64,000 nucleotides of DNA from an uncultured bacterium (GCA_902802825.1 CADCNV010000001.1:567-64566), one strand, 5' to 3'; shown: positions 1,449 to 49,028, counted from the stretch's first letter. Notes: generated by a model from the sequence alone, not told the origin. Numbers and translations: made by a program.

Positions 1449-3608
1449 TTAGTGGCAGCAAGTGCAAGTTGTGCCACAGCCAAATTGTTCTTTTGCTGCA
1501 GTCATATTAACTTTGATTCTGCCGTCAACAGCGATACCTTCACCTGTTTTTTCAGAAATTAACAATGGGTTAATATCCAATTCAGTGATGAAGCTGAAGT
1601 CTGAAACTAATTGAGATAATCTCAAAATTGTTTCTTCAATTTGTTCCATTTGTGCAGGAGTTGTACCTCTTGCGCCTTCTAACAGTTTGTATGCTTTTAC
1701 TGATTTAATCATTTCTTTTGCATCAACGTCAGTTAAAGGTGCAATTCTGAATGTTACGTCTTTCATAACTTCGATAAATACACCGCCTAAACCGAACATC
1801 ATCATATGACCGTATTGAGGATCTGTTGCAACACCGCAAACCATTTCACGGTTGCCTTTAACCATTTCCTGTATGATTACACCTTCCAAACCGTCTAACA
1901 AACCTTTTGCTTCAAGTTTAGAAATAAGGTCTTGATATTCTGCTCTCAATTGTTCAGCTGACTGAATGTTTACTCTTACACCGCCAACATCTGTTTTGTG
2001 AGAAGTTGTTTTTGATGTCATTTTCATAACAACAGGGTAGCCGATTGAATCTGCAATAGATACTGCCTGATCTTCAGTTGTTGCAAATCCGGATTTGCAA
2101 ACTCTGATTCCGTATGCATCCAATACATCAATTGATTCTCTTGTTGTTAATTGTTCTCTTCCGTCAGCAATTGATTGTTTAATAATTGATTCTGCTTTTG
2201 CCTTATCAACGTTATAAGACGGAATTTTACCTTCCGGTCTTTCAATCCATAATCTTTGTTGATTTAATCTGTGTAAGCCCTCTGCAGCTTCTTCAGCATA
2301 CATAAAGAACGGAATATTAACATCCATATCAGATAATGCTGTGAAGAATTCTGATTTAGTCATAAATACACCGATAACCGGTTTTTGTGGATTCTTTGCC
2401 TTAATTTCCATCAATGCTTTAGCAACATCAATATCTTTCAGACCCAAGAACGGTAAGTAAATACAAATAATCATATCAACATTTTCATCAGCAATAACTG
2501 TTTCTAATGTTTGCTTGTAGTGTTCGATAGGAGCAGATGCAATCATATCGATTGGGTTTTTAACAGATGCAGCTGATGGTAAGAAGCTTCTCAATTTATC
2601 TTTTGTAGCGTCTGTAATTTTAGCAATCTGCATACCGTATTCGCAAACAGCATCAGTTGCCATAATCCCAGGTCCGCCTGAGTTTGTAATGATTGCAACT
2701 CTGTCACCCTTTGGGATAGGGCAGTTTGCAAAAACTTTAGCGGTTGAGAATAAGTTCTTTAATGAGTATTCTCTGATTACACCTGACTGATTTAATAAAG
2801 CGTTAGCGGCTTTATCAGCACCTGCTAAAGAACCGGTGTGAGAAGATGCAGCGCTTGCACCTGCTGCTGATCTACCTGCTTTTAATGCCAAAATAGGTTT
2901 TTTCTTAGAAATTCTTGTTGCTAATTTTCTAAAGTTAGCAGGATTTTGAATGGATTCCATATATAAAAGAATCTGTTCAACGTCTTGTTCATTTTCCCAG
3001 TATTCCAAAGCTGTTTCCGCGTTAACATCTGCCTGGTTACCGATTGAAATGAATTGAGCAAAGCCCAAGTTTAAGTCTTTTAAGATATTTAAAATACCGC
3101 CGCCTAATGCGCCTGATTGTGAAACGAATCCGATGTGACCTCTTTCAGGAAGTGATTCAGCAAAGCATCCGTCCATAGAAATTTCAGGTAATGTATTTAC
3201 AACACCTAAGCAGTTAGGCCCAACGCATCTCATACCGTATTCCTGAACTTTAGCTAATAATGCTTTTTCTGCCTCAGCACCTTCTTTGCCTGTTTCTTTA
3301 AAGCCGGCAGTGATGATACAAAGACCTTTGATACCTTTTTGGTGGCACTGATCAATTGTGTCTAAAACGAATTTAGCGTTAACAACGATGATTGCCAAAT
3401 CGATTTCTCCCGGGACTTCCAAAACAGAAGTATATGCCTGTAAACCTTCAATAATACCGCCTTTTGGGTTAATCGGGTAAATATTACCTTTGAATTTGTA
3501 TTCTTGAAGTCTTTTCATGATGTCAGAACCGATTGTGTGTTCTTTTGTAGAAGCACCAACAACCGCAATTGACTTTGGTTTCATAATTTTGTCTAAATTT
3601 GCTGTCAT
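1449..3608 (-). CDS. Acetate--CoA ligase (ADP-forming), fused alpha/beta subunits
   Basis: N-terminal CoA-binding/succinyl-CoA-synthetase-like flavodoxin domains (VVGAS..., NPKGG, GPNCLG, SQSGA, HTGSLAG) plus a C-terminal ATP-grasp domain. 719 aa. Unusual C-terminal tail GCGTTCTCCH. Confidence 0.85.
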   Translation of the reverse strand: MTANLDKIMKPKSIAVVGASTKEHTIGSDIMKRLQEYKFKGNIYPINPKGGIIEGLQAYTSVLEVPGEIDLAIIVVNAKFVLDTIDQCHQKGIKGLCIITAGFKETGKEGAEAEKALLAKVQEYGMRCVGPNCLGVVNTLPEISMDGCFAESLPERGHIGFVSQSGALGGGILNILKDLNLGFAQFISIGNQADVNAETALEYWENEQDVEQILLYMESIQNPANFRKLATRISKKKPILALKAGRSAAGASAASSHTGSLAGADKAANALLNQSGVIREYSLKNLFSTAKVFANCPIPKGDRVAIITNSGGPGIMATDAVCEYGMQIAKITDATKDKLRSFLPSAASVKNPIDMIASAPIEHYKQTLETVIADENVDMIICIYLPFLGLKDIDVAKALMEIKAKNPQKPVIGVFMTKSEFFTALSDMDVNIPFFMYAEEAAEGLHRLNQQRLWIERPEGKIPSYNVDKAKAESIIKQSIADGREQLTTRESIDVLDAYGIRVCKSGFATTEDQAVSIADSIGYPVVMKMTSKTTSHKTDVGGVRVNIQSAEQLRAEYQDLISKLEAKGLLDGLEGVIIQEMVKGNREMVCGVATDPQYGHMMMFGLGGVFIEVMKDVTFRIAPLTDVDAKEMIKSVKAYKLLEGARGTTPAQMEQIEETILRLSQLVSDFSFITELDINPLLISEKTGEGIAVDGRIKVNMTAAKEQFGCGTTCTCCH

Positions 3609-3680
3609 GTTCTTATCCTTTCTTGTTTGATAGTAATATTATATAATAAACATTGATAAACAAACATAATTTTTGGGGTA

Positions 3681-4151
3681 ATTTACATAAATCATATTAT
3701 AGGAATATGTTTGAGAAATAATATTTCTCTTTGTTCACTTTTCTTTTTGATTGCGACGCAAAAAGAAAAGTGAACCGAAAAGAAAAACACGCTATGGTAC
3801 AATACTGCCTTACGGCAGCATAAGACCGCTTCCGCGGTAATATGTGTTTTTGCCTTTCAGGCAAAAATCTCTTAGCGCTGCTAAAACTACGCAGCGCACT
3901 AGGGAAGTTTTCATCAAAGGCGCCGTTGTTTTAGGCGCCTGATAGATTTTTGTCCGTTAGGACAAAAACGTATGCTCGTCCTAAGACTTATATCTTAAGT
4001 GCGTGGCGATGCCGGCAGGCATTGCTGTGCTTTAGCGTTTTTCTCTTTCTTGGTTCTATTCTTTCTCTTTTCATCGCAAGAAAAGAGAAAGAATGAACAA
4101 AAAGAAATTTTCAATCTCTCAATATATTCCTATAATATGATTTATGTAAAT
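3681..4151. mobile_element. Foldback MITE/BIME-like element A (471 bp) with a perfect 28-bp TIR and an internal hairpin mosaic
   Basis: 3681-3708 is the exact reverse complement of 4124-4151. About 10 GC-rich stem-loops lie between them. The two arms are inverted copies with compensatory stem changes. Confidence 0.7.
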
Positions 4152-4157
4152 ATTATG

Positions 4158-5453
4158 TTATTTTACATAATATTTACGCAATTTTGTAATCATAACAAGG
4201 CATAATATTACTGACGAACTCAAAAGCCCTATCCAAAAACCTTTTAAGTACATTTTCAAATGTAACCCGAGATAACAACCCAAAGGAATTGATACGCACC
4301 AATAGGCAATAAAGTTTGCAAGCATAATGATTTTTGTTTGTTTAATTCCTTTACAAATCCCCGAAAGCGAAATTTGTAATCCGTCAAAAATCTGATAACC
4401 CGCCAAAATTACCATTACAGGAAGTACAATCTGATACAATTTTGGGTCCGGGGTGAAAATTGAAACGATAAATTTTGGCAATGATAAATAAACAAGTGCG
4501 CAAATTGTCATAAATGATAGTGACATTCCGATACCTGCAAATGAATATTTTTTAAAGTCGTAAAAGTTCCCTGAACCGTTTGCAAAACCGACTTTTACCG
4601 CAATACCGTTTGAAATTGCAAATGGTATCATAAATGTCATGTTTACCAAAGTTATTAAAATATTTTGTCCTGCTGCATAAATTCCTGCAATCCTTCCCAT
4701 TAAAACTGCAACGATATTAAATGCGACAAATTCAACAAGTATAGCTATGGCAATCGGCAATCCGATTTTTAAAAGGGCCTTGTAGTAGCCCTTTTCGTGG
4801 AAATTTCTCAGCTCCATAATTTTGTGGCAGTAAATTAAAAGAGCAAATCCCATAAAATATCTTACGATAAAACTTGAAACGGCAAGTCCGATAACCCCCA
4901 TTGACGGGATTATTCCCCAGCCAAAAACAAAAATTATATTAAGTGCAAGATTTAAAAATACGCTGAAAATGGTTACTAAATTAGGAAATAATACGATTTC
5001 AAATGCCTGTAAAAATTCTTTTAAACTGTGATGTAAACCGCCGCCAAAAGTTGAAAATGCGCTTATCAGCATATAATCCTGAATCGGCTTAACAAGTTTT
5101 TGCTCAAATCCGATGTGCGGAATAATCGGTATAAATAAAAGAATTAGCAAACATGAAACCCCTGCAAGCCAAAGAGCAAATCTTATTGACGGATAAAAAT
5201 ATCTTTTTATCGGCTTCCCTTCTCCGTTGTAGTTTGATAATAGCGGAGAAATGCTTGCAGTTAATCCGATTGCAAGAGTCATAATGCAGTTTACTATTGC
5301 CGCCGCAAGACTGATTGCGGCAAAGGTATCTGTCGAATGCCGACCGGCAACGATTATATCCCCAATGCCGATAAAAATAAATCCGACGTTGCCGAGTATG
5401 ATCGGGAATGCGATTTTTAAAAGTTCTTTTATATAATAAATCGGCTTGTGCAT
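4158..5453 (-). CDS. MATE family efflux transporter
   Basis: 431 aa, about 12 TM segments, typical MATE N-terminus (LLKIAFPIILGN...). Confidence 0.8.
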   Translation of the reverse strand: MHKPIYYIKELLKIAFPIILGNVGFIFIGIGDIIVAGRHSTDTFAAISLAAAIVNCIMTLAIGLTASISPLLSNYNGEGKPIKRYFYPSIRFALWLAGVSCLLILLFIPIIPHIGFEQKLVKPIQDYMLISAFSTFGGGLHHSLKEFLQAFEIVLFPNLVTIFSVFLNLALNIIFVFGWGIIPSMGVIGLAVSSFIVRYFMGFALLIYCHKIMELRNFHEKGYYKALLKIGLPIAIAILVEFVAFNIVAVLMGRIAGIYAAGQNILITLVNMTFMIPFAISNGIAVKVGFANGSGNFYDFKKYSFAGIGMSLSFMTICALVYLSLPKFIVSIFTPDPKLYQIVLPVMVILAGYQIFDGLQISLSGICKGIKQTKIIMLANFIAYWCVSIPLGCYLGLHLKMYLKGFWIGLLSSSVILCLVMITKLRKYYVK

Positions 5454-5465
5454 AGTTTGATTTTA

Positions 5466-5496
5466 GCATAAAAATAAGGTGCAAAAATTGCACCTT
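5466..5496 (-). terminator. Intrinsic terminator after rplT
   Basis: aaggtgcaa / aaa / ttgcacctt, followed on the minus strand by atttttat. Confidence 0.6.
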
Positions 5497-5522
5497 ACTC
5501 TTATTATTTTTATTTTATGTAA

Positions 5523-5867
5523 CTATTTTGAAACTGTTTCAAAAATTACATCAAATGCTTCAGAATCTCTTACTGCCATATCAGCAAGCATTTTTCTGTT
5601 TACAACAACATTTGCTTTTTTGCATGCATTTACGAATTTTGAATAGCTCATACCGCGTTGTCTTACTGCTGCGTTGATTCTTACAATCCACAATCTTCTC
5701 ATATTGCGTTTTGTAGTACGACGATCTCTGTAAGCATACTTAAGTGCTTTCATTACAGCGATGTTTGCTACTTTAAAGATTCTGCTTCTTGCACCAATAA
5801 AACCTTTAGCAAGTTTTAATATTTTTTTGTGCCTTTTAACACCGGCACTACCACGTCTAATTCTCAT
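5523..5867 (-). CDS. rplT: 50S ribosomal protein L20
   Basis: 114 aa. [23 protein letters not shown]...YAYRDRR is a canonical L20 sequence. Confidence 0.95.
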
Positions 5868-5878
5868 TTTTCATGCTC

Positions 5879-6088
5879 CTATCTTGAATACTTCTTGTAT
5901 GGTAACTCTTTAGATACCAGTGCTACATGTGACTCAGAAACGTCAACCATCTTGAAAATTCTGCGTTTTCTTGATGCTGACTTGTGTTGGAGCAAGTGGC
6001 CGATGCCTGCTTGTCTTTTCATAATTTTGCCGCTTGCAGTAACTTTATAACGTTTTGCTGCGGATCTGTGTGTTTTTAATTTTGGCAT
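5879..6088 (-). CDS. rpmI: 50S ribosomal protein L35
   Basis: 69 aa. MPKLKTHRSAAKRYKVTASGKI... An aaggag SD lies upstream. No infC precedes it. Confidence 0.95.
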   Translation of the reverse strand: MPKLKTHRSAAKRYKVTASGKIMKRQAGIGHLLQHKSASRKRRIFKMVDVSESHVALVSKELPYKKYSR

Positions 6089-6109
6089 TTCGTTTCTCCT
6101 TTTTTGTTT

Positions 6110-6133
6110 GTTGGCGCATCAACGCCAACCTAC
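6110..6133 (-). repeat. GTAGGTTGG-type hairpin (copy c) in the rpmI leader
   Basis: The minus strand reads gtag gttggcg ttgatg cgccaac. The hairpin base lies 21 nt upstream of the rpmI ATG, just before the SD. Confidence 0.7.
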
Positions 6134-6342
6134 GTACATCTTCTTCGCTTCATAGGCATACCAAGGCCTATTTCGGCTGTGTGTTCATATTAGTATGAAC
6201 ATATTTCTTTTGCAATAGGTTTATTCCAAATTTTGAATCACAACCTTTATAATGTAACAATTCCTTAACAATAACCAATAATTTTCTAAAGTTTTAATTA
6301 AATATGCCGATTATTCATTTGTAAGGAAACAAGGGATTAACT

Positions 6343-6873
6343 ATGAGTCTTAATGTAAATTATACTTCTCTATACAAAAATGGCATTGACAGATCAATGC
6401 TTAAAGAAGTTTCTCAGGAGATTCTTAATCGTGCGGCTCAAAAAAGTGCTGCTTATACAAATAACATCACTTCTAATGCACAAGTTGGTTCTTTGGCTAA
6501 ACCTGAATTGGGGATTGATTTATATAACGGGAAAGTTGATGTACAAGCACAAAAACAAATAGCTTTAAATAATACCTTACAATTTCAGTTAAATGCTGAC
6601 ACATTGAAATCTATTCAATTTTTAAATTCTCAGGCAGCAATTTCATCAAAGATTGATGGAAAGTATATGCCAAATGTAAATGCAAGCGCAATTGTTCCGG
6701 AAGCTCAAAAAACTTCTGAGGCAAACAAATCTCAGTTTATGAGTATATTTACATCTGAAACAGCAAAAGACAAAAACGGTTCTAATCCTTTTTATGGCGG
6801 GGAATTACTTATGAATAACAATAATCCTAAAAAGGAAGAAACCAAAAACGAATTAAAAAGCATTTTTGCTTAA
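6343..6873 (+). CDS. Hypothetical protein (Asn/Gln/Ser-rich, no signal peptide)
   Basis: 176-aa ORF with an aagg SD-like sequence upstream and a terminator downstream. No family recognised. Confidence 0.55.
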   Translation: MSLNVNYTSLYKNGIDRSMLKEVSQEILNRAAQKSAAYTNNITSNAQVGSLAKPELGIDLYNGKVDVQAQKQIALNNTLQFQLNADTLKSIQFLNSQAAISSKIDGKYMPNVNASAIVPEAQKTSEANKSQFMSIFTSETAKDKNGSNPFYGGELLMNNNNPKKEETKNELKSIFA

Positions 6874-6926
6874 TTATAAATCCTCGTATTGAGGGCATCA
6901 CAAGTGTTTACAAGAAAGTGTATATA

Positions 6927-6958
6927 ATATCTTCTCTAACAGGAGAAGATATTTTTTT
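6927..6958 (+). terminator. Intrinsic terminator
   Basis: atatcttctc / taacag / gagaagatat followed by ttttttt. Confidence 0.75.
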
Positions 6959-7002
6959 ATCCTGTTGGCGAATTATATTTTTCATGTTATGGGTAATTAT
7001 AG

Positions 7003-7482
7003 CTACATAAAACATATTATCGGTATGTATGTTTTGACAAACTACCTTGCCCCATTTCTTTGACCGCAAAGAAACGGGGCGCAAAGAAACTCCCCGACCT
7101 GAACTACGTTCGCTAATCATTTGTACGCCCTCGCATTAAGTGAATACGGCTTACGTCTAATATCCTCTGCTCGGGCTATGCTCCACATTCAGGCGAGATA
7201 ACTCACTATCGTTCAGACAAATCCCGCCTTGTTGTCGTGTCGCAAACAATGATTGCTCACTTCGTAAAGGTCGGAAATCTTACAGGTGTGCGGGGCGTTG
7301 TCCTTAGCCCCGCTAAGAGATTTTTGCCCCAAGGCAAAAATACATATTACCACGAAGTGGTCTTATGCTGCCGTAAGGCAGTATTGTACCCTAGCGTGTT
7401 TTTCTTTTTTGGTTCGTTTTTTCTTTTTGCTTCAAGACAAAAAGAAAAAATGAACAATATACCAATAATATGTTTTATGTAG
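7003..7482. mobile_element. Foldback MITE/BIME-like element B (480 bp), same TIR family as element A
   Basis: ctacataaaacatattatcggtat (7003-7026) against ataccaataatatgttttatgtag (7459-7482) matches 23/24 as an inverted repeat. 7311-7405 is the reverse complement of about 95 nt of element A. Confidence 0.7.
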
Positions 7483-7506
7483 TCAGGCAAAATGAGGATT
7501 TATACT

Positions 7507-7971
7507 ATGAAAAAAGAAAACATTTGGTTTGTTGCGGCTTGCGCATTGTTTTTTATCGGAGGTTATACAATGAATGATGTTGCTATTTCACTTCCCCGCT
7601 ATAAAGTCGCTGTTGTTGATATTACAAAAGTTATGGAGCAGTCTAATGATATAAAAAATCTTAAAGCAAGTCAGGACAAACAATTAAAAGAACTCCAAAC
7701 GCTGATTTCAAAAGCTCAAAATGAAATTGCAAATACTCAGGATGAACAAAAAGCAGTTCAGTTGCAGGCAAATTACAGTAAAGAAATTGAAACAAAAAGA
7801 AATGCAATAGATGAAGAATACAGCAAAAAAATTGTTCAAATAACATCAAACATAAAAAATCTTGTAGCTACACAGGCCAAAAAGGCGGATTATAATCTTG
7901 TCCTGCCGACAGGAATGGTAATTTCCGGAGGTGAAGATATTACTGATAATGTTTTAAAAGAAATGCAATAA
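7507..7971 (+). CDS. Skp/OmpH-like periplasmic chaperone
   Basis: Signal/anchor segment then a coiled coil (VAVVDITKVMEQS...). ATG 7507 has a gagga SD 8 nt upstream. The listed start at 7492 is less likely. Confidence 0.7.
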   Translation: MKKENIWFVAACALFFIGGYTMNDVAISLPRYKVAVVDITKVMEQSNDIKNLKASQDKQLKELQTLISKAQNEIANTQDEQKAVQLQANYSKEIETKRNAIDEEYSKKIVQITSNIKNLVATQAKKADYNLVLPTGMVISGGEDITDNVLKEMQ

Positions 7972-8941: not shown

Positions 8942-10247
8942 TTATTTGTTCATTTCTTTTACGATTTTATCTGCTTCTTCTTTGGTTAAGCCGGTTGCAG
9001 CTACTGACGTTTCTACTGAACCATCTGCTTTTTTGCATGTTGTAATAATTTTGTAACCATTTGAAGTTTTTTCTGTTCTTGTTTTATTTTTTGCTTCCTG
9101 GCTTACTCCTTTAGTTTTGTCATATTTTGATTTTTGAACTTTATTGTCCTGATATTTAGCACCGCCGAGTTCTTTTGGTAACTGTTCAGGGAAATAATAT
9201 GCATCATATAATGTTTTCCCTTTTTGTTCTATTCTTGGGATAATTGTTTTGCCTGAAGCATCCTGACCTGATTTTGGTAAACCCATTTGTTCTCTGATGT
9301 ATTCACGAACTTTTTTGTTTTGTTCAGGGTCTTTAATACCGTATTTTGCTTCGATTACTTTGTCAAGACGGTCACCTGCCTGCATTTTATATGCAATATT
9401 TTTTATTTCTTTTTTAGTTACATCTTCTTTTGCCGTTGCCTTGCAATCTTTTTCAGGATTTGCAGGGGCTACAGGTGCTGCTCCATTGCTGCATCCTTTG
9501 CAATCTTTGAGTAAATATGCTGCGCCTGCGAGAAGCAATAACGGAATACCCCATTTACCTAATTTTTTGCCAAATTTACCAAGTTTCCCAAAGAACCCTG
9601 ATTTTGGTGTCGCATTTGGTTTTGGACCAGGAGCCGGAGTAGGTTTTGGTCCCGGAGCCGGATTTGGTTTTGGACCTTCGACCGGAGCTTGAATCGGAGC
9701 CGGAGTTGGGAGCCGGATTTGGTTTTGGACCTTCGACCGGAGCTTGAATCGGAGCCGGAGTTGGTTTTGGTGTTGGCTTCTCAATCAAAGCCGGTAAATT
9801 AGGAGTTGGTTTTACCACAGGAATTGGATTTGCATCTTTATATCCAAAACTTCTCCACCATTCAGCTGTTTCCGGAGTTACAGGTATTTTTGCCCCTTTA
9901 AAAGGTTCAAAAGGACAAGTTGCAGTGACTGTTCCTTTAGCAGCTTTTCTGTTTTCAGCTTTGCGCAAACTTTTTTGTAATTCGCTTTCGCCTTTGTTTA
10001 TTCCTAATCTTTCATCAATGGCTGCTGCACTTACTTCAGGTCTTTCTTTTAGGCATTTACCAATATAACTTTTAACCCTTTTGCCTGCTTCAGCTTGGGA
10101 CATAATTCTTCCTGTAACCGGATCTTGCGCTCTTATGCCGTATATTGCATTCTGCGTATTTTTTGCTTCCGATTTAGAAATAACTCTTCCGGTTTTCGGA
10201 TTTTTTGCATAAACATGATAATTGACGATGTCATTGATAGAAACCAT
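8942..10247 (-). pseudogene. LysM-like/proline-rich single-pass membrane protein gene, frameshifted by a 55-bp tandem duplication
   Basis: ORFs 9576..10247 and 8942..9784 overlap in different frames, and both encode PTPAPIQAPVEGPKPNPAP. Removing one 55-bp copy fuses them into one 416-aa ORF. aaggagg SD before 10247. Confidence 0.75.
9655..9764. repeat. Perfect 55-bp tandem direct repeat (2 copies)
   Basis: gagccggatttggttttggaccttcgaccggagcttgaatcggagccggagttgg occurs at 9655-9709 and again at 9710-9764. Confidence 0.95.
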
Positions 10248-12684: not shown

Positions 12685-15600
12685 CTATCTTCTTTTTCTG
12701 CCATTTTGTGCAGAAGATGCGGCATTCACTTTTTGAGAACGTCTTTTTGAATCAATAGCGCCATCTTTATTGAATCTTGCAAGTTTAACATCGGATTTGT
12801 CTGTTGTATCGAATTTTGCATATACTTTTGCATATTCATTTGCCATTGCAACATCATTAGGATTGTTTCCGTTTAATTCTGCATTTAGTGAAGATTGATT
12901 AAAGCCGGTACTGATATCCTTGGTTGATGGTTGAGGAATGTATGCAGTGTTATTAAAGCTGTTATTATTGATGTTTTCTTGATTATTATTTTGGTCTTGA
13001 TTTAAAGTGTTTTCACCTGAATTTTGTTTTTCTTCGTCAGAAATTATATGTGCTTCTTTTTCAGCAGGCAAATTATCCATTTTATCAAGTTTTGCTTTTG
13101 CGATGTTTTTTTCTGCTTTAGACATATTTTTTTGTTGTTCAATTCTTGATTTTGACTGATCTTGGAGTTGTTTATTATTATCATCAATTTTGTGTTCAAC
13201 ATTATCGCTTACAAGCTTGGCTGCTACGCCTGTTGCCGCAACGGCAGCATTTTGTATAAGAGTTTTTGCCCATAATGCAGCAAGAGGCCAGCACCATGGC
13301 CCTCCTGCCATAAGTATTGCAATTAATGCAGTAATTATTCCTTGTGCGACAATCGTTTCTGCTATAATGACGTCTCCGACTGCGTCATTATTATCATTTC
13401 TTTCTGTTAATTTAGTATTAAGGTCATTAAACCCTTTTGATGAAAGGTTCGATTCTTTCATTGTTTTTAGAACTTTTGATTTTGGTTCTTCAATTGAAGA
13501 TAAAAGTTTTTCATCTTTTTGTGCCATGAGTGAAACTTGTTTGCGAATGACACTTTTTGCACCTGCTGTCGGGTCTTCATATTCAACAATGTCTTCTTCT
13601 TTCATTTTGCCTGACTGAACAAGTTTTATTTGGTTTTGGTACATTGCAAATTGATAATCAATTGCTGCATTTTGCAGTTCTTTAAGCTGTTGAGTATAAA
13701 TTTTTGATTGAGCAAAATTTTTATCGTGTTCAGCTTTTATTTGATTAGCTTTGGTCGTTAATGCCTTTGATGCATCTTCTGCAGATTTTGCATCCTTGTC
13801 AGCAAGTTCTCCGCTTTCGTCAACTATACCCTTTTTAGAGTATAAATCAAGTATTGACAGTCCGACAATAGCTGCCCATTTAAGAATTGCAAAAGTGAAA
13901 CTCGCAGGCCCAAGCCCAATAAGAGATACAATATTATTTGCAACTACAAGTTTTACAAAATCGAAGTTATTTCCATATTCATCTTTTAATGATGCCTGAT
14001 GGTCTACAATTTCTTCTTTTTGATTATTTTTTTCCGTTTTATTTGTTTTCTCTGTGTTTGAAGTTGAATTATCTGATTTGGATGTTTTCTTTGTTTCGGT
14101 TACTTCAAATTTATGTGTGCCATTATAAGAAGAAATCAGATCTTCCGGTTGTCTTCCTTGTACTATGTTTTGTACTACATATTCTTTTAGATCTTCCGTA
14201 TTCGTGTCTGTTTGTCGATTTGTGGTCTCAGATGTTTCATTATCATCCGTGTCCGAATTAATAATAGTTTCGTTTTCATTAATTTCCTGTTCAGAATTTT
14301 GATTTGATACAAAATTTTCATTTTCTGGAATAATATCCTGTGTATTTGCATCAGGTTCAGCGATATTCTGAGGTTCTAATTCGGTATTCACACCAGGAAT
14401 TGCAGAATTAATTTTTGCAGTATCAACATTTGTTGTGTCTTCTTCATTTAAATTTGAATCGCTATTTGTGTTGTTTGTTTGGTTATTATTTAAAATAGTA
14501 TTATTAGTATTATTATCGTCTTCAGTTAAAACCGTAACATTGTTATTAATAGCATCATCAATATTGTTTTCAGATATAGTATTTGTATTGCTATTCACAA
14601 CAGCATCAGTGCTTTCTTCTGATATAGAATTGGTATCGTTATTAATAGTATTATCAATATTGTCTTCAGATATAGTATTGGTATCGTTATTAACAACGTT
14701 ATTTGTTTTTTCTTCTTCCTGAATTACTGATTTAGGGCTGTCTGTATTTTCTTTGTTTTCTTCTGTTTCAATTTCTGTATTGTTTATTATTTCATTTTCT
14801 GCGGATTCTTTTGTATTTTTATTCTCATCTGAAATATTTTGGGTGTTTGTAATGTCTGTTCCATTCTTCATTTCAGTTGATTCTGATTCTGAAGAATTTT
14901 TATTATTCAGGGTAATATCTTTTTGGTCAGATGTTATTTCTGCTAATATATTTGTTTGTGTCTGATTGTCAGTTTTAGTTGAAGTCGTTTCGTTTTGATT
15001 TTTGTTTTGGGAAACTTCGTCCTTATTTTCATTTTGTTCATCTGTATCTTTAACTTCTGTTTTATCTGTGCTAAAGGATTCGATGTCTAAAACATTTTCT
15101 ATATGTTCTGCAGTATGAGTGTATTCATCGGCAAAAGATATAATTTCTTTTGTTGTATCACTATTAATAATTACATTTGCTTCATTGCTTATATTTTCTA
15201 AGTCATGACCTATTTTTTCTGCAACTAAAGATAACTGAATATCATTTATTCCGCTCAGTCTATCTGCTAAAGATGAACTGGTTGTTGATGCCATTTTGTA
15301 TGCGTGTGCTCGGTGAAAAATGTTTAATCCGTCATCTAAATTTGATAAATTTGCTGCAGCATTGATTGTGCTTCCGGCTATATTTCTGCCTTCAGTAGTT
15401 TTATTTTGCAAATCATCTATTGAATCAAGAAAATCATCCAGTTGAACGGCATCATTTTGCATTTGTTTAATTATGTCGCTGTTTTTGTCGAGTTTCTTTG
15501 ATAATTTAGTATATTCTGCGTATTCGGAAGATGTTATTGTTCCTTCTTTTTTCTTCTTATCAAGTTCTTTCCATTCATTTACCATTTTTTCGGTTTTATC

Positions 15601-16290
15601 TATTGAACTTTGATTTAATATATTTTTTTGCTTTTTGCTGATATCAGAAGCTTTGCCTGCGTACTCATTTGTTTTTTCTGATTTTTTTATAATATCTTCC
15701 TGAGCTTTTTTAGATTTGACTGAATAATCTTTTACCTGTGCGCGGATCTTATTTATTTCTGATTCCCCGGTTTTTTGGTTTTTAAAATTATCGTCATTAT
15801 ATTCAGAATTGTCTGAAACGATTACATAATCAGTAACGTCTGCTTCTTGCTGCCCCTTTGCCCAACCAAGAACAGCTTTTGGAATGTTGACACCATTATT
15901 TGCCATTGCAATAATTTCTTCATAAGAATATTGTGCATATTTAGGATCCGGTGCAACATCAAGCCCCCCAAGTACCTTGTCGTAATGGCCGTTAAAGCTC
16001 ATGTTTATTTGTCTTTGAGCGTATTGGAGATAAAAAGCATCACTAAATTTTTGATTCTGACCTCCACTTGGAGTAAAATCTTGTTCTCCCTGATATTTTA
16101 ATTGCCCCGCAAGAGCCACTACTTCCGGGCTGTATCCGGCAGCTTCATTTGTATCAATAGGCAATGACTTGCTGTGGTCTTTAATGTTCCCAAAGCCGGT
16201 ATGTTTATTTATAGATGTTTTCAGCGATTTTGAAACATTTGCTCTTTCAGCTTCCGGTGTCGCTGCTACTGTTTTTGTGTACTTACTCAT
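12685..16290 (-). CDS. Very large hypothetical membrane protein (1201 aa) with an Asn/Thr/Glu-rich low-complexity core
   Basis: Single long ORF. It has coiled-coil-like Lys/Glu segments, two hydrophobic hairpin regions (VVANNIVSLIGLGPASFTFAILKWAAIVGLSIL and IITALIAILMAGGPWCWPLAALWAKTLIQNAAVAATGVAA) and a basic C-terminus. Confidence 0.7.
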   Translation of the reverse strand: MSKYTKTVAATPEAERANVSKSLKTSINKHTGFGNIKDHSKSLPIDTNEAAGYSPEVVALAGQLKYQGEQDFTPSGGQNQKFSDAFYLQYAQRQINMSFNGHYDKVLGGLDVAPDPKYAQYSYEEIIAMANNGVNIPKAVLGWAKGQQEADVTDYVIVSDNSEYNDDNFKNQKTGESEINKIRAQVKDYSVKSKKAQEDIIKKSEKTNEYAGKASDISKKQKNILNQSSIDKTEKMVNEWKELDKKKKEGTITSSEYAEYTKLSKKLDKNSDIIKQMQNDAVQLDDFLDSIDDLQNKTTEGRNIAGSTINAAANLSNLDDGLNIFHRAHAYKMASTTSSSLADRLSGINDIQLSLVAEKIGHDLENISNEANVIINSDTTKEIISFADEYTHTAEHIENVLDIESFSTDKTEVKDTDEQNENKDEVSQNKNQNETTSTKTDNQTQTNILAEITSDQKDITLNNKNSSESESTEMKNGTDITNTQNISDENKNTKESAENEIINNTEIETEENKENTDSPKSVIQEEEKTNNVVNNDTNTISEDNIDNTINNDTNSISEESTDAVVNSNTNTISENNIDDAINNNVTVLTEDDNNTNNTILNNNQTNNTNSDSNLNEEDTTNVDTAKINSAIPGVNTELEPQNIAEPDANTQDIIPENENFVSNQNSEQEINENETIINSDTDDNETSETTNRQTDTNTEDLKEYVVQNIVQGRQPEDLISSYNGTHKFEVTETKKTSKSDNSTSNTEKTNKTEKNNQKEEIVDHQASLKDEYGNNFDFVKLVVANNIVSLIGLGPASFTFAILKWAAIVGLSILDLYSKKGIVDESGELADKDAKSAEDASKALTTKANQIKAEHDKNFAQSKIYTQQLKELQNAAIDYQFAMYQNQIKLVQSGKMKEEDIVEYEDPTAGAKSVIRKQVSLMAQKDEKLLSSIEEPKSKVLKTMKESNLSSKGFNDLNTKLTERNDNNDAVGDVIIAETIVAQGIITALIAILMAGGPWCWPLAALWAKTLIQNAAVAATGVAAKLVSDNVEHKIDDNNKQLQDQSKSRIEQQKNMSKAEKNIAKAKLDKMDNLPAEKEAHIISDEEKQNSGENTLNQDQNNNQENINNNSFNNTAYIPQPSTKDISTGFNQSSLNAELNGNNPNDVAMANEYAKVYAKFDTTDKSDVKLARFNKDGAIDSKRRSQKVNAASSAQNGRKRR
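14521..14712. repeat. Four degenerate 48-bp tandem repeats inside the giant ORF
   Basis: Units start at 14521, 14569, 14617 and 14665 (ttcagatatagta...). They encode the 16-aa repeats (NNDTNTISEDNIDNTI-like). Confidence 0.85.
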
Positions 16291-16371
16291 AATTTCTTGC
16301 CTATTGATTAGTAATTACTCATATCTAAAGACGGCAAGAATATTGATAAACTTTAAAAAAATACCCATAAA

Positions 16372-16418
16372 AAAATAATGCCGTTACAAATTGTTACAAT
16401 GTAACAGGCATTATTTTA
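16372..16418 (-). terminator. Intrinsic terminator after trxA
   Basis: ataatgcc gttaca ... tgtaac a ggcattat, with a U-run on the minus strand (A-run 16373-16379). Confidence 0.7.
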
Positions 16419-16431
16419 GTTTGTTAATAAA

Positions 16432-16755
16432 TTATATGTGCTTTTCTATATTTGTAATAATAGTTGATTTTGGCATTAATCCAACCATTCTTTCAACCGG
16501 CTGTCCTTTGTCAAAAACTAAAAGACAAGGGATTCCGCTTATTGAATATTTTTTTGCTGTTTCTTTGCTTTGTTCAACATTTACTTTTACAAACTTCACT
16601 TTTCCTTCGTAATCTTTTGAAATTTCTTCCAAAACAGGTCCTAATTTTCTGCATGGCCCGCACCATGTTGCCCAAAAATCAACAACTGTTGGGATGTCAG
16701 ATTGTTCTACTTCCTGTTCAAATATTTCATCTGTTAATTCTAAGATTTCTGCCAT
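16432..16755 (-). CDS. trxA: Thioredoxin
   Basis: 107 aa with the WATWCGPC active site. Confidence 0.95.
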   Translation of the reverse strand: MAEILELTDEIFEQEVEQSDIPTVVDFWATWCGPCRKLGPVLEEISKDYEGKVKFVKVNVEQSKETAKKYSISGIPCLLVFDKGQPVERMVGLMPKSTIITNIEKHI

Positions 16756-16847
16756 AATTCCTCTCCATTAATTTTATTACATGCCGCATTTTAACATAGA
16801 AAAATTTTTTGTGCTATTATCTAATGTAGGATTGTTAGGATAGAGAT

Positions 16848-17765
16848 ATGGCAAGAAAGAAAATAATTGAAATAGTTTTGGATACAGAAACAACCGGGCT
16901 TGATTATACTAAAGAAAAAATGGTTGAATTTGCTGCTGTCCGTCTTGAAAACGGAAAGATTAAAGATCAGTTCCAAACTTTAATTAATCCGCAACAGCAT
17001 ATAAGAAAATCAAGTATTGCTATTCACGGTATTACCCCTGAAATGGTAGAAGATGCTCCGACAGAAGAAGAAGCAATGCCAAAAATTCTTGAATTTATGG
17101 GGGACTACCCAATGGTTGCTCACAATGCGATATTTGATTATTCATTTATAAATGAAGCATCAAAAAGAGTAACGGGGAAAGAAATTCAAAATGAAAGAAT
17201 AGATACTCAGCAAATGTTCAAAGAAGTCTATCCTGATTTGGATGCGCATGGTCTTAATGCCTTAACTGAAAAATTTAAAGTTGAGTTAAAAGATCATCAC
17301 AGAGCAATGGGTGATACTATGGGACTGGCTCTTGCTTATCCAAAATTAAAAAAATTATATCTTCAGAGAAATGATTGGGCTAACAAAGAACTTGAAAATG
17401 TTGAATACCTGTTTGAAAGATTTTTGCGTATACAGAATACCGTCACTACATTACAATCCGAATTGCAGGACTTAAAATCAGTATTCAAATTGTACTTTGA
17501 TTTAGGCGGCAAACCGTTGACCTCAGAAGAAGGTGACTTATTAATATACAATTCAAAACAGTCTTTTGGATATGATTTTGAAGCAATAAAACCGGTACTT
17601 GAAGAATTAGGTGCATTATCAAAGGCAGCTCGGCTTAATACGGGCTTTGTTGACAGACTTGCAAACGGTCATAGTATTGATGACGAAAAAAGAGAAATTT
17701 TAAAAAGTGCCCGCACTGAATTGACTGAAACAAGAAATGTGCAAATAGTAAAAAATAACAAATAG
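16848..17765 (+). CDS. DEDDh 3'-5' exonuclease (DnaQ/epsilon-like) with a ~130-aa C-terminal extension
   Basis: VLDTETTGL, HNAIFDYSFI and HRAMGDT motifs. Confidence 0.75.
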   Translation: MARKKIIEIVLDTETTGLDYTKEKMVEFAAVRLENGKIKDQFQTLINPQQHIRKSSIAIHGITPEMVEDAPTEEEAMPKILEFMGDYPMVAHNAIFDYSFINEASKRVTGKEIQNERIDTQQMFKEVYPDLDAHGLNALTEKFKVELKDHHRAMGDTMGLALAYPKLKKLYLQRNDWANKELENVEYLFERFLRIQNTVTTLQSELQDLKSVFKLYFDLGGKPLTSEEGDLLIYNSKQSFGYDFEAIKPVLEELGALSKAARLNTGFVDRLANGHSIDDEKREILKSARTELTETRNVQIVKNNK

Positions 17766-19938: not shown

Positions 19939-19946
19939 GTTTTATA

Positions 19947-20175
19947 ATTCATTCTTGCATAATTGTTTTTCCCGTATTTCGTGCCTGTCTTGACCTGTTC
20001 GCAATAAACGTGACTCCGTGCCCTGCTCGTCTTGCTCATCGCAAGCCGACACTGGTACTTCGAACTCTGCTCGGAGCCCGCTCCTCGCATTAAACGGCAA
20101 CGCCTCCAATTAGCAAGAATATTCATTCTTGCATAATTGTCGGTCTGGTACTTTGTACCTGCCTCTGCTCGGAGC
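19947..20175. repeat. GC-rich hairpin-module mosaic C with a 20-bp perfect direct repeat
   Basis: attcattcttgcataattgt occurs at 19947-19966 and 20121-20140. ctctgctcggagc occurs twice. One module, cgtgccctgctcgtcttgctcatcgcaagccgacactggtacttc, is shared with 25975-26020. Confidence 0.65.
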
Positions 20176-20176
20176 T

Positions 20177-20206
20177 AAAAAAAAGTTGCCATTGAATAAC
20201 GGCAAC
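20177..20206 (-). terminator. Orphan terminator-like hairpin (minus-strand orientation)
   Basis: gttgcc / attgaataac / ggcaac preceded on the plus strand by an A8 run. No annotated minus-strand gene ends here. Confidence 0.4.
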
Positions 20207-22990: not shown

Positions 22991-23114
22991 TACGTTAACT
23001 ATATTTATAAGTAGTAGTTGAGAGATTAAAACTTTTTGCTTGTACACTTTTCTTTTGCCTCGCAAACAAAAGAAAAGAAATGAACATAACATACCTATAA
23101 ATATAGTTTATGTA
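22991..23114. mobile_element. Minimal (124-bp) member E of the tacataaa-TIR foldback family
   Basis: tacgttaactatatttataagtag (22991-23014) against atacctataaatatagtttatgta (23091-23114) as inverted repeats. Central cacttttcttttg...caaaagaaaag hairpin as at the ends of elements A and B. Confidence 0.6.
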
Positions 23115-24391: not shown

Positions 24392-24445
24392 AGCGGGAAT
24401 TGAGATTCTGAAACAAGTTCAGAATGACAAAATTCCCGCTTTTTT
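24392..24445. terminator. Bidirectional terminator whose loop is the 28-nt hairpin repeat
   Basis: agcgggaatt [g + agattctgaaacaagttcagaatgacaa] aattcccgct ttttt, between convergent genes. Confidence 0.7.
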
Positions 24446-25806: not shown

Positions 25807-25841
25807 GTTTCTATTTGCCTTTCTAGCCCTTATTATCTGTT

Positions 25842-25865
25842 GTTGGGCAAGTATGCCCAACCTAC
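25842..25865 (-). repeat. GTAGGTTGG-type hairpin (copy d) upstream of rpsR
   Basis: The minus strand reads gtag gttgggca tact tgcccaac. Confidence 0.75.
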
Positions 25866-25881
25866 CTTTCTTAATTTTTTA

Positions 25882-26038
25882 CATTGGCTTTCGCCTTTAT
25901 TCCGCCTGTGCAATCAAAGATTGCTTCGTTCGCTTCATTATCATTTCGCTCACAACGGCGGTGGTATTATGTTTCGTGCCCTGCTTGTCTTGCTAATCGC
26001 AAGCCAACACCGGCACTTCACATCGGCTTTCGCCTTTA
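25882..26038. repeat. GC-rich hairpin-module insert D between ssb and rpsR, bounded by an 18-bp direct repeat
   Basis: cat(t/c)ggctttcgccttta occurs at 25882-25899 and 26021-26038. The second copy contains the ssb stop codon. The interior shares a ~45-nt module with element C. Confidence 0.65.
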
Positions 26039-26449
26039 GAACGGAATTTCTCCGTCATCCATCAAAACTTCTGTTTCGGAAGCTCCTGATGGTTCCATAT
26101 CTCCAAAACTCAGGATGTCGCCTTCTTCGTGTACTTCTGATGATGATGAACTCCCGCCCATTAATTCGATTGATGATGCTTCAATTTCAAAAACTTTCTT
26201 TTCTGTTCCGTCATCAAGTTTGCTTACCCCTGTTTGAAGTCTTCCGCCAACCAAAACTTTTTGATTTTTTGAAAGAGTATCAATTACATCAGAAAGCGCT
26301 TGTCTTTTTGATATTACTCTGACTAATGTTTCTTCTCCGCCTTCGCCGATATTCATAACAAAAGAAGATACTGCAACATTATTCTGCGTATATCCTGTTT
26401 TTGGTTCTCTGTATACTATGCCTGTTACGGCTGCTTTTGCTAAAGTCAT
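26036..26449 (-). CDS. ssb: Single-stranded DNA-binding protein
   Basis: OB-fold N-terminus and an acidic tail ending DDGEIPF. The start is reassigned to ATG 26449 (MTLAKAAVTG...) with an aggaag SD. Confidence 0.9.
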   Translation of the reverse strand: MTLAKAAVTGIVYREPKTGYTQNNVAVSSFVMNIGEGGEETLVRVISKRQALSDVIDTLSKNQKVLVGGRLQTGVSKLDDGTEKKVFEIEASSIELMGGSSSSSEVHEEGDILSFGDMEPSGASETEVLMDDGEIPF

Positions 26450-45990: not shown

Positions 45991-46446
45991 TTACTTAATA
46001 ATTTTTGCAACTTCTGCTGTTATATCGGTTCCGCCATAAAGAACTATGCTCTTGCTTAAAACTACATTGTAGCCGTCAGCTTTTGCTTTTGCAGCAATCT
46101 GAGCTGAAATTGATTCATCAATGGCTTGCAATTTTGCTGCGTAATCCTTATCCATTTTTTCTTTTTTAGCTTGCAATTCTTTATTATATTTTTCTTCAGC
46201 TGCTTGTTTTTTCTTTGCATCAGAAATAGAAGCTACATCTTTTCTTGCTTTTTCAATAAACTGAACAATTTCTTTTGCTTTTGCTTGTTGATCTTTTTTC
46301 AATGCCTGAACCTGAGCTGAAGCATTTACTACAACAGGAACGTCAACTATTGCAACTGAAAAATCTGCAGCTTGTACAGCTGAACCGAATGTTAAACCAC
46401 CTAATAATGCAGCTGTTACTGCTAATGTGCTTAAAGTTTTTTTCAT
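45991..46446 (-). CDS. Skp/OmpH-like periplasmic chaperone (second copy)
   Basis: Signal peptide (AVQA|AD), VAIVDVPVVV..., then a Lys/Ala/Glu coiled coil. Confidence 0.75.
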   Translation of the reverse strand: MKKTLSTLAVTAALLGGLTFGSAVQAADFSVAIVDVPVVVNASAQVQALKKDQQAKAKEIVQFIEKARKDVASISDAKKKQAAEEKYNKELQAKKEKMDKDYAAKLQAIDESISAQIAAKAKADGYNVVLSKSIVLYGGTDITAEVAKIIK

Positions 46447-47045: not shown

Positions 47046-49028
47046 ATGAAAAGTAGTAGAAATTTAAAAGCATTCTTTGGTATGGCTTTGGCTGTATCAG
47101 TTTGTTGTATTCTTTCTTCTGTGCCTGCAAATGCGGAGGATATTCCAACAGGCATACAGCTGTTAAGGAATGAACAAGGTGGTGCAACTCAGCACGACCG
47201 TGATATGATGAAATTTGATCGTGACAGTCGTGATGAAGCGTCTGATTACGGTAACTACAGTCGTCAACGTTACGGTACAAACGGTAATCCCGTAAAAAAT
47301 TATGCATCTCCAAACAGTGACTATATGAAGGCAACAATTGATGAAATTGGCACAAAAGGTGTTTATGTAAACTCAATTGAAGTCTCTCCGTCAGAAATTT
47401 TATCTCAGGATGAAATCAATGGCGTAATCGGTCAATACGTTGGTAAAAACGTATTTATGAGTGACATTCAGGAAGCAATAAACGGAATCAACAAACTTTA
47501 TGCAGAAAAAGGATATGTAACTGCAAGAGCATATCTCCCTGAACAAACCGTTTCAAACGGAAATATTAAAATTGAACTTATCGAAAGTAAAATTGGTAAT
47601 GTAACTGTTAAAAATAACAGATATACTACAAGTAATTATATTTTAAACCGTATGCCTGAAAAATCAGGACAATTATTTGATATTGTGGGTTTAGAAAATG
47701 ATGTTTTGGATTTCAACAGATATCACGATGGAGTTAACCTAAGTGCAAACTTAAAAGCAGGTCAGACTCCCGGAACTACCGATATTGAATTGACGGCTCA
47801 GGAAACATTCCCGCTTCACATTATCGGTATGTTTGATAATGCGGGTCGTTACTCAACAGGTTCATTAAGAGGCGGTCCTGCTATTATCGTTGACTCTTTG
47901 TTCCACCAAAGAGACCAAATGTCATCCGGTGTTTACTTCTCTAAAGGTGTAATAAGTCCGTTCTTTGATTATAGTATTCCAATCAACAGAAAAGATGGTA
48001 GAATCGGTTTTTCATTCACTTCATCTTTTGCCAGAGTTGTTAACGGATCTTCTACTGTTACTAATTTGGGTTTGAGAAGTAATTCTTATGTTTATAGCTT
48101 GTACTATGATCAGCCGATTGTCAGAAAAAGAGGTTTTGAATTCAAAACTTATGCTGCTTTGAACTACAAACGTTCAAGATCTTGGTCTAAATACGATGGC
48201 ATATATGAAGATATTATTGGTTACAGTCCATTTAAAAAATTAACTCAAATTACAAGCTTGGATGCCGGCTTTAATTTAAGAAAAGATACAAAATACGGTA
48301 TTTGGTATTTAAACCAGATGGCTAGTATGGCATTTCCTATATTTGACAGTGAATCAAGTTATTTTAAATATTCAGGTAGTATCTTAAGATTACATGATTT
48401 CTCTCACGGCTTTATAGGTCAATTGAGAAGTAATTATCAAATTATTCCTAATGACAAACATATTCCTTATTTGGATTTATTCCAGACAGGTGGTTTGGCT
48501 ACAGTCAGAGGTTACTCAGAAGGTGTATTGATGGGTAAAAACGGATATTTAATCAGTGGTGAATTGATGTTCCCTCTTTTACCAAGAACAATAACAACAA
48601 AAGACGGCAAGATTCATAACTTTATCGGAAATTACATAAAAGGTGCGGTATTTGCTGATACTGCGGGGGTATTCCCGTATAGAGGTGAAGACGTTTATGG
48701 TGGAAGTTACTTCTTAGCATCATTAGGTATGGGTTTAAGAGTTCAGTTACCGGGTGACTTGAGTGCAAGATTATATTGGGGCTATCCGTTAGTTAACAAC
48801 AGATATGAAACTGATAGAAAATACGGAAGATTCCATTTTGAATTGACTGTTGAACCGGATTTAGACAGATTGCTTGCAAAAAGACAGCCAAAAGCGCCTG
48901 TTGTTGAACCGCCTGCTCCTCAACCGGAACCGGAACCAAAGGAAGCACCTCCAATCGAATTGCCTAATAACTATGATGATGTCAGACACTATGACTACAT
49001 GTTAGACGGAAGTGCAACTGCATTGTAA
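47046..49028 (+). CDS. ShlB/FhaC/HecB-family (TpsB) outer-membrane transporter
   Basis: Signal peptide. POTRA region (KGYVTARAYLPEQTVSNGNIKIELIESKIGNVTV). FQTGGLATVRGY barrel motif. An extra Pro-rich ~60-aa tail follows the barrel. Confidence 0.8.
   Translation: MKSSRNLKAFFGMALAVSVCCILSSVPANAEDIPTGIQLLRNEQGGATQHDRDMMKFDRDSRDEASDYGNYSRQRYGTNGNPVKNYASPNSDYMKATIDEIGTKGVYVNSIEVSPSEILSQDEINGVIGQYVGKNVFMSDIQEAINGINKLYAEKGYVTARAYLPEQTVSNGNIKIELIESKIGNVTVKNNRYTTSNYILNRMPEKSGQLFDIVGLENDVLDFNRYHDGVNLSANLKAGQTPGTTDIELTAQETFPLHIIGMFDNAGRYSTGSLRGGPAIIVDSLFHQRDQMSSGVYFSKGVISPFFDYSIPINRKDGRIGFSFTSSFARVVNGSSTVTNLGLRSNSYVYSLYYDQPIVRKRGFEFKTYAALNYKRSRSWSKYDGIYEDIIGYSPFKKLTQITSLDAGFNLRKDTKYGIWYLNQMASMAFPIFDSESSYFKYSGSILRLHDFSHGFIGQLRSNYQIIPNDKHIPYLDLFQTGGLATVRGYSEGVLMGKNGYLISGELMFPLLPRTITTKDGKIHNFIGNYIKGAVFADTAGVFPYRGEDVYGGSYFLASLGMGLRVQLPGDLSARLYWGYPLVNNRYETDRKYGRFHFELTVEPDLDRLLAKRQPKAPVVEPPAPQPEPEPKEAPPIELPNNYDDVRHYDYMLDGSATAL

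Follow-up and report, generated by a model that had tools for sequence, protein, structure and literature searches.

Bacterial MITEs are characterised by terminal inverted repeats (TIRs), TA termini and long stem-loops, and the classic families are shorter than 200 bp (PMC2229807). The Correia/NEMIS repeats are non-coding, end in TIRs of about 24 bp with TA termini and a TA target duplication, and lie near gene starts; their ends carry -10-like boxes, and their transcripts fold to long stem-loops for which cutting by RNase III has been proposed (PMC2229807). TA is also duplicated by IS630/ISY100, and ISY100 needs only its 24-bp TIRs in cis (PMC2170065). RUP of Streptococcus pneumoniae and the IS630/Tc1-mariner MITEs are bounded by TIRs, lie at TA and are mobilised in trans (PMC2170065, PMC2229807), and BIMEs are composite REP structures (PMC2817692).

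Here we analyse element B, a repeat located directly upstream of a skp gene in a stretch of 64,000 nt from an uncultured bacterium (GCA_902802825.1, CADCNV010000001.1:567-64566), hereafter the window, from whose first letter coordinates are counted. Like MITEs, the members of the B family are TIR-bounded, non-coding and dispersed, with filled and empty sites, but their length of 430-788 nt is large for bacteria. B resembles the Correia/NEMIS repeats of Neisseria in being non-coding, in its TIRs, TA termini and -10-like boxes, and in its intergenic position near gene starts. However, Correia repeats measure 105-155 bp with one optional 50-bp insert, whereas B measures 478 nt and comprises at least six conserved hairpin modules and a nested repeat, and the two have no sequence in common. 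The likeness to RUP likewise lies in the TIRs and the TA sites, but RUP has 107 bp, the B family is 4-7 times larger, and no IS630-type transposase with matching TIRs was found for it.

Intergenic mosaic arrays of hairpins in or at operon ends, maintained by selection, are also formed by REP/BIME (and ERIC/IRU) repeats in enterobacteria. They lack long TIRs and are tied to RAYT (Y1) transposases, whereas the B array is framed by a TIR of 23-31 bp. Roles in mRNA stability and protein binding have been proposed for REP/BIME. Yeast mitochondrial GC clusters and the RPE of Rickettsia are G+C-rich palindromic modules, nested, in AT-rich intergenic DNA; with other hosts, other sequences and no common long TIR, they offer a resemblance to B only. 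Correia/NEMIS and RUP are the closest in kind, and REP/BIME is a resemblance for the mosaic hairpins.

Results

Ends, modules and position of element B

B occupies positions 7003-7482 on the minus strand and measures 478 nt from TA to TA (7004-7481). Its left TIR, TACATAAAACATATTATCGGTAT (7004-7026, plus strand), was recognised both by an inverted-repeat search and by the TIR pattern; its right TIR, TACATAAAACATATTATTGGTAT (7459-7481, minus strand), holds an outward -10-like AATAAT. An earlier note on this DNA had placed the TIRs at 7003-7026 and 7459-7482 with 23 of 24 positions matching, and had likened them to those of another repeat of the window, element A. Both statements are borne out: A and B have a common 23-nt consensus, TACATAAAWCATATTATMGGWAT, found in the window only at their four ends (0.00 chance matches expected). 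The distance to skp also agrees, as the right TIR ends at 7482, 24 nt before the ATG at 7507. The skp/OmpH gene itself (7507-7971, plus strand, 154 aa) was identified by gene callers and is preceded by a Shine-Dalgarno sequence, GAGGA, at 7494-7498.

The module order M1, M2, M3, M5 runs on the minus strand of the window; B is thus reversed there and its M1 end adjoins skp. Starting from this end, all on the minus strand, B consists of M1 (7412-7455), a subterminal hairpin whose stem of about 18 bp pairs a pyrimidine arm with a purine arm; the linker X (7382-7411), purine-rich on the forward strand, CCAAAAAAGAAAAACACGCTAGGGTACAATA; M2 (7290-7381), four small hairpins (7290-7313, 7321-7340, 7343-7367 with a core at 7349-7361, and 7368-7381) that form the block common with A 3783-3899; M3 (7095-7273), a long imperfect hairpin whose inner helices covary and whose outer sequence is invariant (CGACCTTTACG.AGTGAGCAAT ... 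ATTAGCGAACG.AGT.CAGGTCG); and M5 (7049-7080), a hairpin reading GCCCCGTTTCTTTG-CGGT-CAAAGAAATGGGGC on the forward strand. The same sequence as part of a conserved protein-coding gene, which the note had named as the contrary case, was not found: the ORFs inside or overlapping B are not conserved and have no Pfam match, and relatives carry empty sites.

Element A (3684-4148, plus strand; its inverted repeat extends to 3681-4151) is a symmetric member of the family, with M1/X at both ends and without M3. Segment 7311-7405 of B matches the reverse complement of A 3783-3877 at 87 positions, with 6 mismatches and 4 gap positions located in or beside hairpins, and the similarity extends past this 95-nt block to 173 nt at 84%. 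The compensatory change proposed for the first hairpin is confirmed, ACCGC-TTCC-GCGGT in A becoming ACCAC-TTC-GTGGT in B by a G-C to A-T double change, as is the difference in the second, where TTTTTGCCT-TTC-AGGCAAAAA in A corresponds to TTTTTGCC-TTGG-GGCAAAAA in B. The opposite orientation attributed to the block holds in window coordinates but not within the element: measured from the M1 end, its place is the same in A and B, and the two blocks read as reverse complements only because of the reversed position of B in the window. The third copy of the window is a minimal or degenerate member of about 124 nt (22991-23114), reduced to TIR, linker, M1 hairpin and TIR.

Members and distribution of the family

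A scan with the TIR pattern over one genome per species returned 24 loci, six of which are chance matches in unrelated taxa. The other 18 belong to uncultured rumen MAGs: RUG13924 (five loci), RUG11085, RUG12313 and RUG12020 (three each), RUG13727, RGIG4922 and MGG30239. Scanning metagenomes with the same pattern added further rumen contigs, so that the family is present in at least seven rumen MAGs (five RUG genomes, RGIG4922 and MGG30239) and in several rumen metagenomes. The two scans combined gave at least 22 complete elements, with lengths of 430-788 nt and a median of about 470. About 15 further copies break off where the stored locus stops, some of them at true contig ends, as is to be expected of repeats that break assemblies. 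Contigs of the same species as the window carry the B locus, five of them retrieved via the acetyl-CoA synthetase gene and more via Skp; three of the Skp-bearing contigs end inside B.

The 22 complete elements have a 23-nt TIR consensus, TACATAAAACATATTATCGGWAT, at both ends, and the ends of the family are CATAAAACATATTAT-like. All 22 occupy intergenic positions. Most have co-directional genes on either side, and a stop or start codon is often at a distance of 0-30 nt; many copies follow stop codons or lie between convergent genes.

None of the 4227 Rfam families gave a gathering-level match in the 64 kb, and a scan of 3500-7600 at E<=10 returned only noise, with at most 27.5 bits compared to gathering scores of 40-230. 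The known structured RNAs of Rfam 15, including ROOL, GOLLD, OLE, HEARO and raiA, did not match. Neither plasmids and phages (searched with blastn) nor viral contigs (searched with the TIR, M2 and M3 patterns) contained the family, and a tRNA/tmRNA search of the window was negative. As it corresponds to no Rfam family and has no plasmid or phage match, the family looks previously undescribed.

A fixed module order with nested repeats

On the forward strand the elements read TIR, optional linker, M1 (an 18-bp hairpin), X (the purine-rich linker), M2 (four small hairpins), M3 (a 129-nt imperfect hairpin), M4 or M5, and TIR. The earlier note had described the family as modular with shuffled cargo. 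It is modular indeed, but free shuffling does not hold, since the order and orientation from X/M2 through M3 to M4 or M5 are the same in 14 of the 14 M3-bearing copies. Copies differ by optional modules, by nested insertions and, occasionally, by inversion of the interior. A symmetric subtype (A, L054a, L065a and L068, L designating the loci analysed) has M1/X at both ends and no M3, whereas B is of the asymmetric type. Content can also differ at one site: M1 occurs with or without a 90-nt nested module at the orthologous sites L017 and L052, and the asymmetric and symmetric subtypes face each other at L047 and L068. Such sites speak for exchange between copies by recombination or conversion, or else for more than one insertion.

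A small repeat is nested in M3 of B (7126-7176, minus strand), with TA at 7124-7125 and 7177-7178; on the forward strand it reads TA-GCCCGAGCAG...ATGCGAGGGCG-TA. Of 12 aligned M3 copies, 8 do not have this branch. The repeat also exists outside large elements, alone or in tandem, in L049, in L028 and at 20078-20175 of the window (minus strand), where it is preceded by TA and by the end of a tandem neighbour (20065-20077); in L054b the small repeat has a different interior. TA is found on both sides of the small repeat in L019, L049 and L028, which makes its TA case clearer than that of B. In L002 (ERZ1024272), a 26-nt deletion polymorphism in B, corresponding to window 7156-7181, removes one end of the nested repeat.

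The modules of B had been related to the segment 19947-20175. The relation exists through the termini of the nested repeat, B itself having only motifs of 10-16 nt in common with that segment (E 0.016-0.2). The motifs cctcgcattaa and ctctgctcgggc on which it had been based are these termini, which explains the link. In other members of the large family, 57-77 nt align to 19996-20140 at 82-84% (E 1e-9 to 1e-18). Another module stands free at 19996-20072 and 25973-26028 and is nested in the M1 loop of L017 and L064. The large elements thus owe part of their growth to smaller palindromic repeats that inserted into them.

Other repeats and gene content of the window

TIR-less arrays of hairpin modules that also occur in the large elements are present at 19940-20180 and 25880-26045. 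Within the former, two copies of the small TA-flanked repeat stand in tandem, and direct repeats of 20 nt, ATTCATTCTTGCATAATTGT, are found at 19947 and 20121. A REP-like G+C-rich hairpin, GTAGGTTGGGC...GCCCAACA, is found at gene 3' ends, twice in the convergent spacer 1207-1449 (1216-1240 and 1329-1353) and once beside a small gene near 25.8 kb (25841-25865). Another hairpin, GATTCTGAAACAAGTTCAGAATGACAA, exists in two 31-nt copies that are 97% identical and lie each just past a gene end (1293-1323 and 24403-24433); a related module, kin of this 31-nt hairpin, is included in the family member L010.

In-frame tandem repeats were observed at 14539-14716, with a period of 48 nt, in a 1201-aa ORF without Pfam matches (12685-16290), and at 9606-9763, with periods of 24 and 55 nt, in a 280-aa ORF (8942-9784). 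The neighbouring gene product is not of constant length in related contigs, with 416 vs 460 aa in L001 and L002. At about 16300-16850, gene orientation switches together with the cumulative GC skew, whose minimum lies near 16.5-16.8 kb; this may be a replication-related strand switch. The window also encodes a DUF561/ycf23-like protein, an FeFe hydrogenase and type IV pilus genes, from which we guess an affiliation of the host to Gastranaerophilales.

Filled and empty sites upstream of skp

The comparison with related genomes that the earlier note had proposed revealed an empty site: relatives have a spacer of 160-168 nt without the element at the same place. Their Skp orthologues are 95% (P0010 and P0012), 92% (P0015), 87% (P0038) and 82% (P0052) identical at the amino-acid level, and the gene pair formed by the 176/178-aa gene and skp is kept. 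In the window the spacer measures 634 nt with B and 158 nt once B is removed. We aligned filled and empty loci (the latter being L078-L084, L090-L093, L095 and L096) with MAFFT, and both flanks align up to the junction TA. The empty locus L084 reads ...GTAATTATA-TA-GTTAGTC...ATGAGGATTT, and the window ...GTAATTATAGC-TA[CATAAA...TTTATG]TA-GTCAGGC...ATGAGGATTT. On these alignments B is an insertion, repeated precise loss being the less simple alternative.

The junctions are compatible with an insertion of B accompanied by duplication of TA, as in IS630/Tc1-mariner, Correia, ERIC and RUP. Over the family, the termini are TA at 19 of 22 left and 17 of 22 right ends (36/44). The filled sites have 2 extra nt at the left junction relative to L084, so that TA duplication is not proven, and there is no duplication outside the TIR; the terminal TA could itself be the duplication, or simply part of the TIR.

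The same junction is filled in RUG11085, RUG13924 and ERZ842401, in which flank divergence reaches about 20%, while relatives closer than these are empty. To account for this distribution, the element must have been lost several times, or one site must have been used repeatedly. Presence and absence were seen at just one other site, L024 vs L054, which was considered as a clean insertion and rejected: the indel comprises the element plus 7 and 29 nt, lies between 6-nt direct repeats GTATAA and has a solo TIR fragment alongside, and it looks like a microhomology deletion.

Conservation of the hairpins

Both strands of B and of A fold far more stably than shuffled controls, with z-scores of -10.6 and -11.1 for B and of -17 for A. 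The covariation analysis advocated in the earlier note supported the structure: in 15 aligned M2 blocks, 99% of the cells are paired and 7 pairs have changed on both sides, a result reached by none of 500 shuffles, slid controls being 31-49% paired. Two M3 subfamilies differ by 6 double changes. The linker sequences are invariant while the stems covary, being kept by compensatory change. The two arms of the TIR have derived (non-consensus) bases in common at 17 positions, compared to 7.9 ± 2.3 expected, a value attained in 1 of 2000 permutations.

Resident copies change slowly. Between the window and RUG11085, B shows 11 differences over 478 sites and A shows 3 over 433 (0.7-2.3%), whereas dS of the neighbouring genes is 0.12-0.44 and adjacent unstructured DNA diverges by about 10-20%; orthologous copies thus diverge 5-19 times less than neighbouring synonymous sites. 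In more distant orthologous pairs, the divergence of the element is about that of the mostly coding flanks and still below neutral. The RUG11085 orthologue of A (L019, about 7022-7060) has lost its ACS-proximal TIR, with 32 nt deleted, and its remaining 433 nt account for the 3 differences above: a copy unable to transpose is still conserved.

Five of the 11 changes in B fall within 25 nt (7023-7047), at the inner end of the left TIR and in the adjoining linker. None of the 11 disrupts the stem of a local module, the three broken pairs being weak linker pairs or long-range pairs of the MFE structure. A test of paired against unpaired substitutions on the MFE structure was not significant once long-range MFE pairs were counted. 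Eight substitutions affect paired positions, and five of them exchange a Watson-Crick pair for G.U or the reverse on the forward strand; when the same changes are placed in the fold of B's reverse strand, three of them affect pairs, and these become A.C mismatches. The forward strand also folds better by 13-23 kcal/mol in 6 of 14 copies. A family-wide strand bias was considered and rejected as inconsistent (137 G.U pairs on the forward strand vs 117 on the reverse), and the strand-specific signal comes from few events. The covariation of the stems and the slow change of orthologues make some constraint on resident copies likely, at the level of the host or of the RNA.

Discussion

Nature and mobility of the element

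B is probably a non-autonomous, TIR-bounded foldback element of the MITE type, which entered the gap between the 176-aa gene and skp; with the same fair confidence, the insertion took place at or next to a TA of this short spacer, in the lineage of an AT-rich diderm rumen bacterium. The best reading of the family as a whole is that it is MITE-like, unusually large, composite and new. B would have been mobilised in trans by a TA-duplicating DDE transposase of IS630/Tc1-mariner-like type, encoded elsewhere or since lost, and would now be mostly static, tolerated or exapted. No transposase, recombinase or invertase family was recognised among the window ORFs scanned (nearly all those of at least 140 aa). 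No autonomous element with these TIRs was found either, and no two paired TIRs are more than 788 nt apart in the 66 loci from the genome and metagenome scans. Because the searches turned up no partner transposase, and because the junctions agree with a target duplication but do not prove it, membership of an IS630-derived class cannot be claimed.

Expression of skp

The earlier note had concluded that skp must be transcribed from or through the element. From the layout of the locus, this may reasonably be supposed. A terminator-like hairpin followed by a T-run (6926-6953, plus strand) closes the upstream 176-aa gene; it lies outside B and is kept in genomes with and without B. It would leave for the promoter either the roughly 50 nt to the left of B or B itself. 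A promoter on the left would entail read-through of a 5' leader of about 500 nt, in which the 24-bp TIR stem and the inner hairpins could be sites of processing or stability, as in Correia- and REP-type repeats. Alternatively, skp might be expressed from the outward -10-like box in the TIR. All 44 termini carry an outward NATAAT ending 12 nt from the tip, but no -35 enrichment accompanies it (5/44 vs 11% in the control), and a promoter scan of the region was at chance level (21 sites vs 17.9 expected). With no -35 partner above background, an element-borne skp promoter is unsupported beyond the -10-like box. A second OmpH/Skp-like gene (45991-46446) adjoins the gene of an Omp85/ShlB-type POTRA protein (47046-49028), and skp beside B is therefore not the sole copy in the genome.

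Other readings of the locus

The slow, structure-preserving change of B and A is not predicted for neutral or purely selfish DNA and points to an added function. It could be taken further, to a large structured ncRNA gene or a strand-specific ssDNA structure that has spread on a transposon-like chassis, the TIRs being its closing helix. The dispersed copies would then be paralogous RNA genes, kept by selection on the RNA and not by transposition. The fixed order and orientation of the modules, the invariant linkers between covarying stems, the low divergence of the A and B orthologues relative to neighbouring genes and to unstructured DNA, the G.U toggling on the forward strand and the better folding of that strand in 6 of 14 copies all agree with such a gene. 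It would, however, have no counterpart in Rfam even at E<=10 and no recognisable promoter or terminator; its orientation relative to co-directional neighbours is mixed (about 5 antisense to 4 sense), its interior is inverted between orthologous sites, and the family-wide G.U count favours neither strand consistently. The greatly varying module content, the insertion polymorphism and the nested TA-flanked repeat are moreover classic transposon features. We consider this reading unlikely, though the most serious of the alternatives, and the same modest weight goes to the proposal that the M1-X-M2-M3 backbone is a functional strand-specific RNA or ssDNA of a new class under host-level purifying selection. 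If true, the element would not be a decaying selfish repeat; the backbone might serve operon transcripts as a modular cassette for their processing or stability, or might be what a trans-acting recombinase uses for recognition or as a guide.

Phase variation, in which the TIRs would be recombination sites and flipping of the 430-nt interior would switch skp and other downstream genes, seems improbable. Inverted repeats of 23-31 bp around some 430 nt, 24 nt upstream of a gene start, do recall the invertons fimS, hin and those of Bacteroides, in which inverted repeats enclose a few hundred base pairs just upstream of a gene and for which such a size and position are typical. As in invertons, interiors of the B family are inverted between related genomes: that of L021 relative to L064 is reversed with respect to both flanks, and L032 carries a flipped B, identical at 453 of 454 positions. 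But the interior of an inverton is a promoter, whereas that of B is a stack of hairpins, and many copies of the family sit at gene 3' ends, after stop codons or between convergent genes. The M1 end is next to skp in contigs of at least eight samples of the species (window, L001-L003, L072, L073, L076 and L077), the orientation is the same in RUG11085 (L019), RUG13924 (L006) and L030, related genomes exist without the element, and the window ORFs scanned include no invertase. L032 was rejected as a case of phase variation: this contig has a length of 1959 nt and breaks off inside the element, its nearest relatives are empty-sited, and its skp follows that of the window over about 140 nt before diverging, so it is probably a chimera. 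L094 (ERZ27280160 contig, positions 1-160), in which the reverse complement of the skp 5' end is joined to the spacer at a shared 10-mer, ATAAATCCTC, is an assembly chimera at the skp locus and shows that orientations read from short contigs need caution. A vertically inherited, non-mobile cis-regulatory leader of skp is the least credible explanation and a very remote one. It would fit a highly structured segment directly upstream of skp with the same orientation in at least four genomes, but the same TIRs and modules recur at many unrelated loci, three of them in the window alone, and skp orthologues that are 82-95% identical have a plain spacer of 160-168 nt.

Significance of the family

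The family has consequences for annotation, as it explains contig breaks and spurious small ORFs in the rumen MAGs of this lineage. If it is indeed undescribed, it extends the MITE-type repeats of bacteria to a much larger, composite and nested form. It is also a natural example of resident copies on whose hairpins purifying selection appears to act. This raises the question of whether such an element is a parasite of spacers or an RNA or DNA structural module that shapes the expression of its neighbours, here that of the outer-membrane chaperone gene skp.
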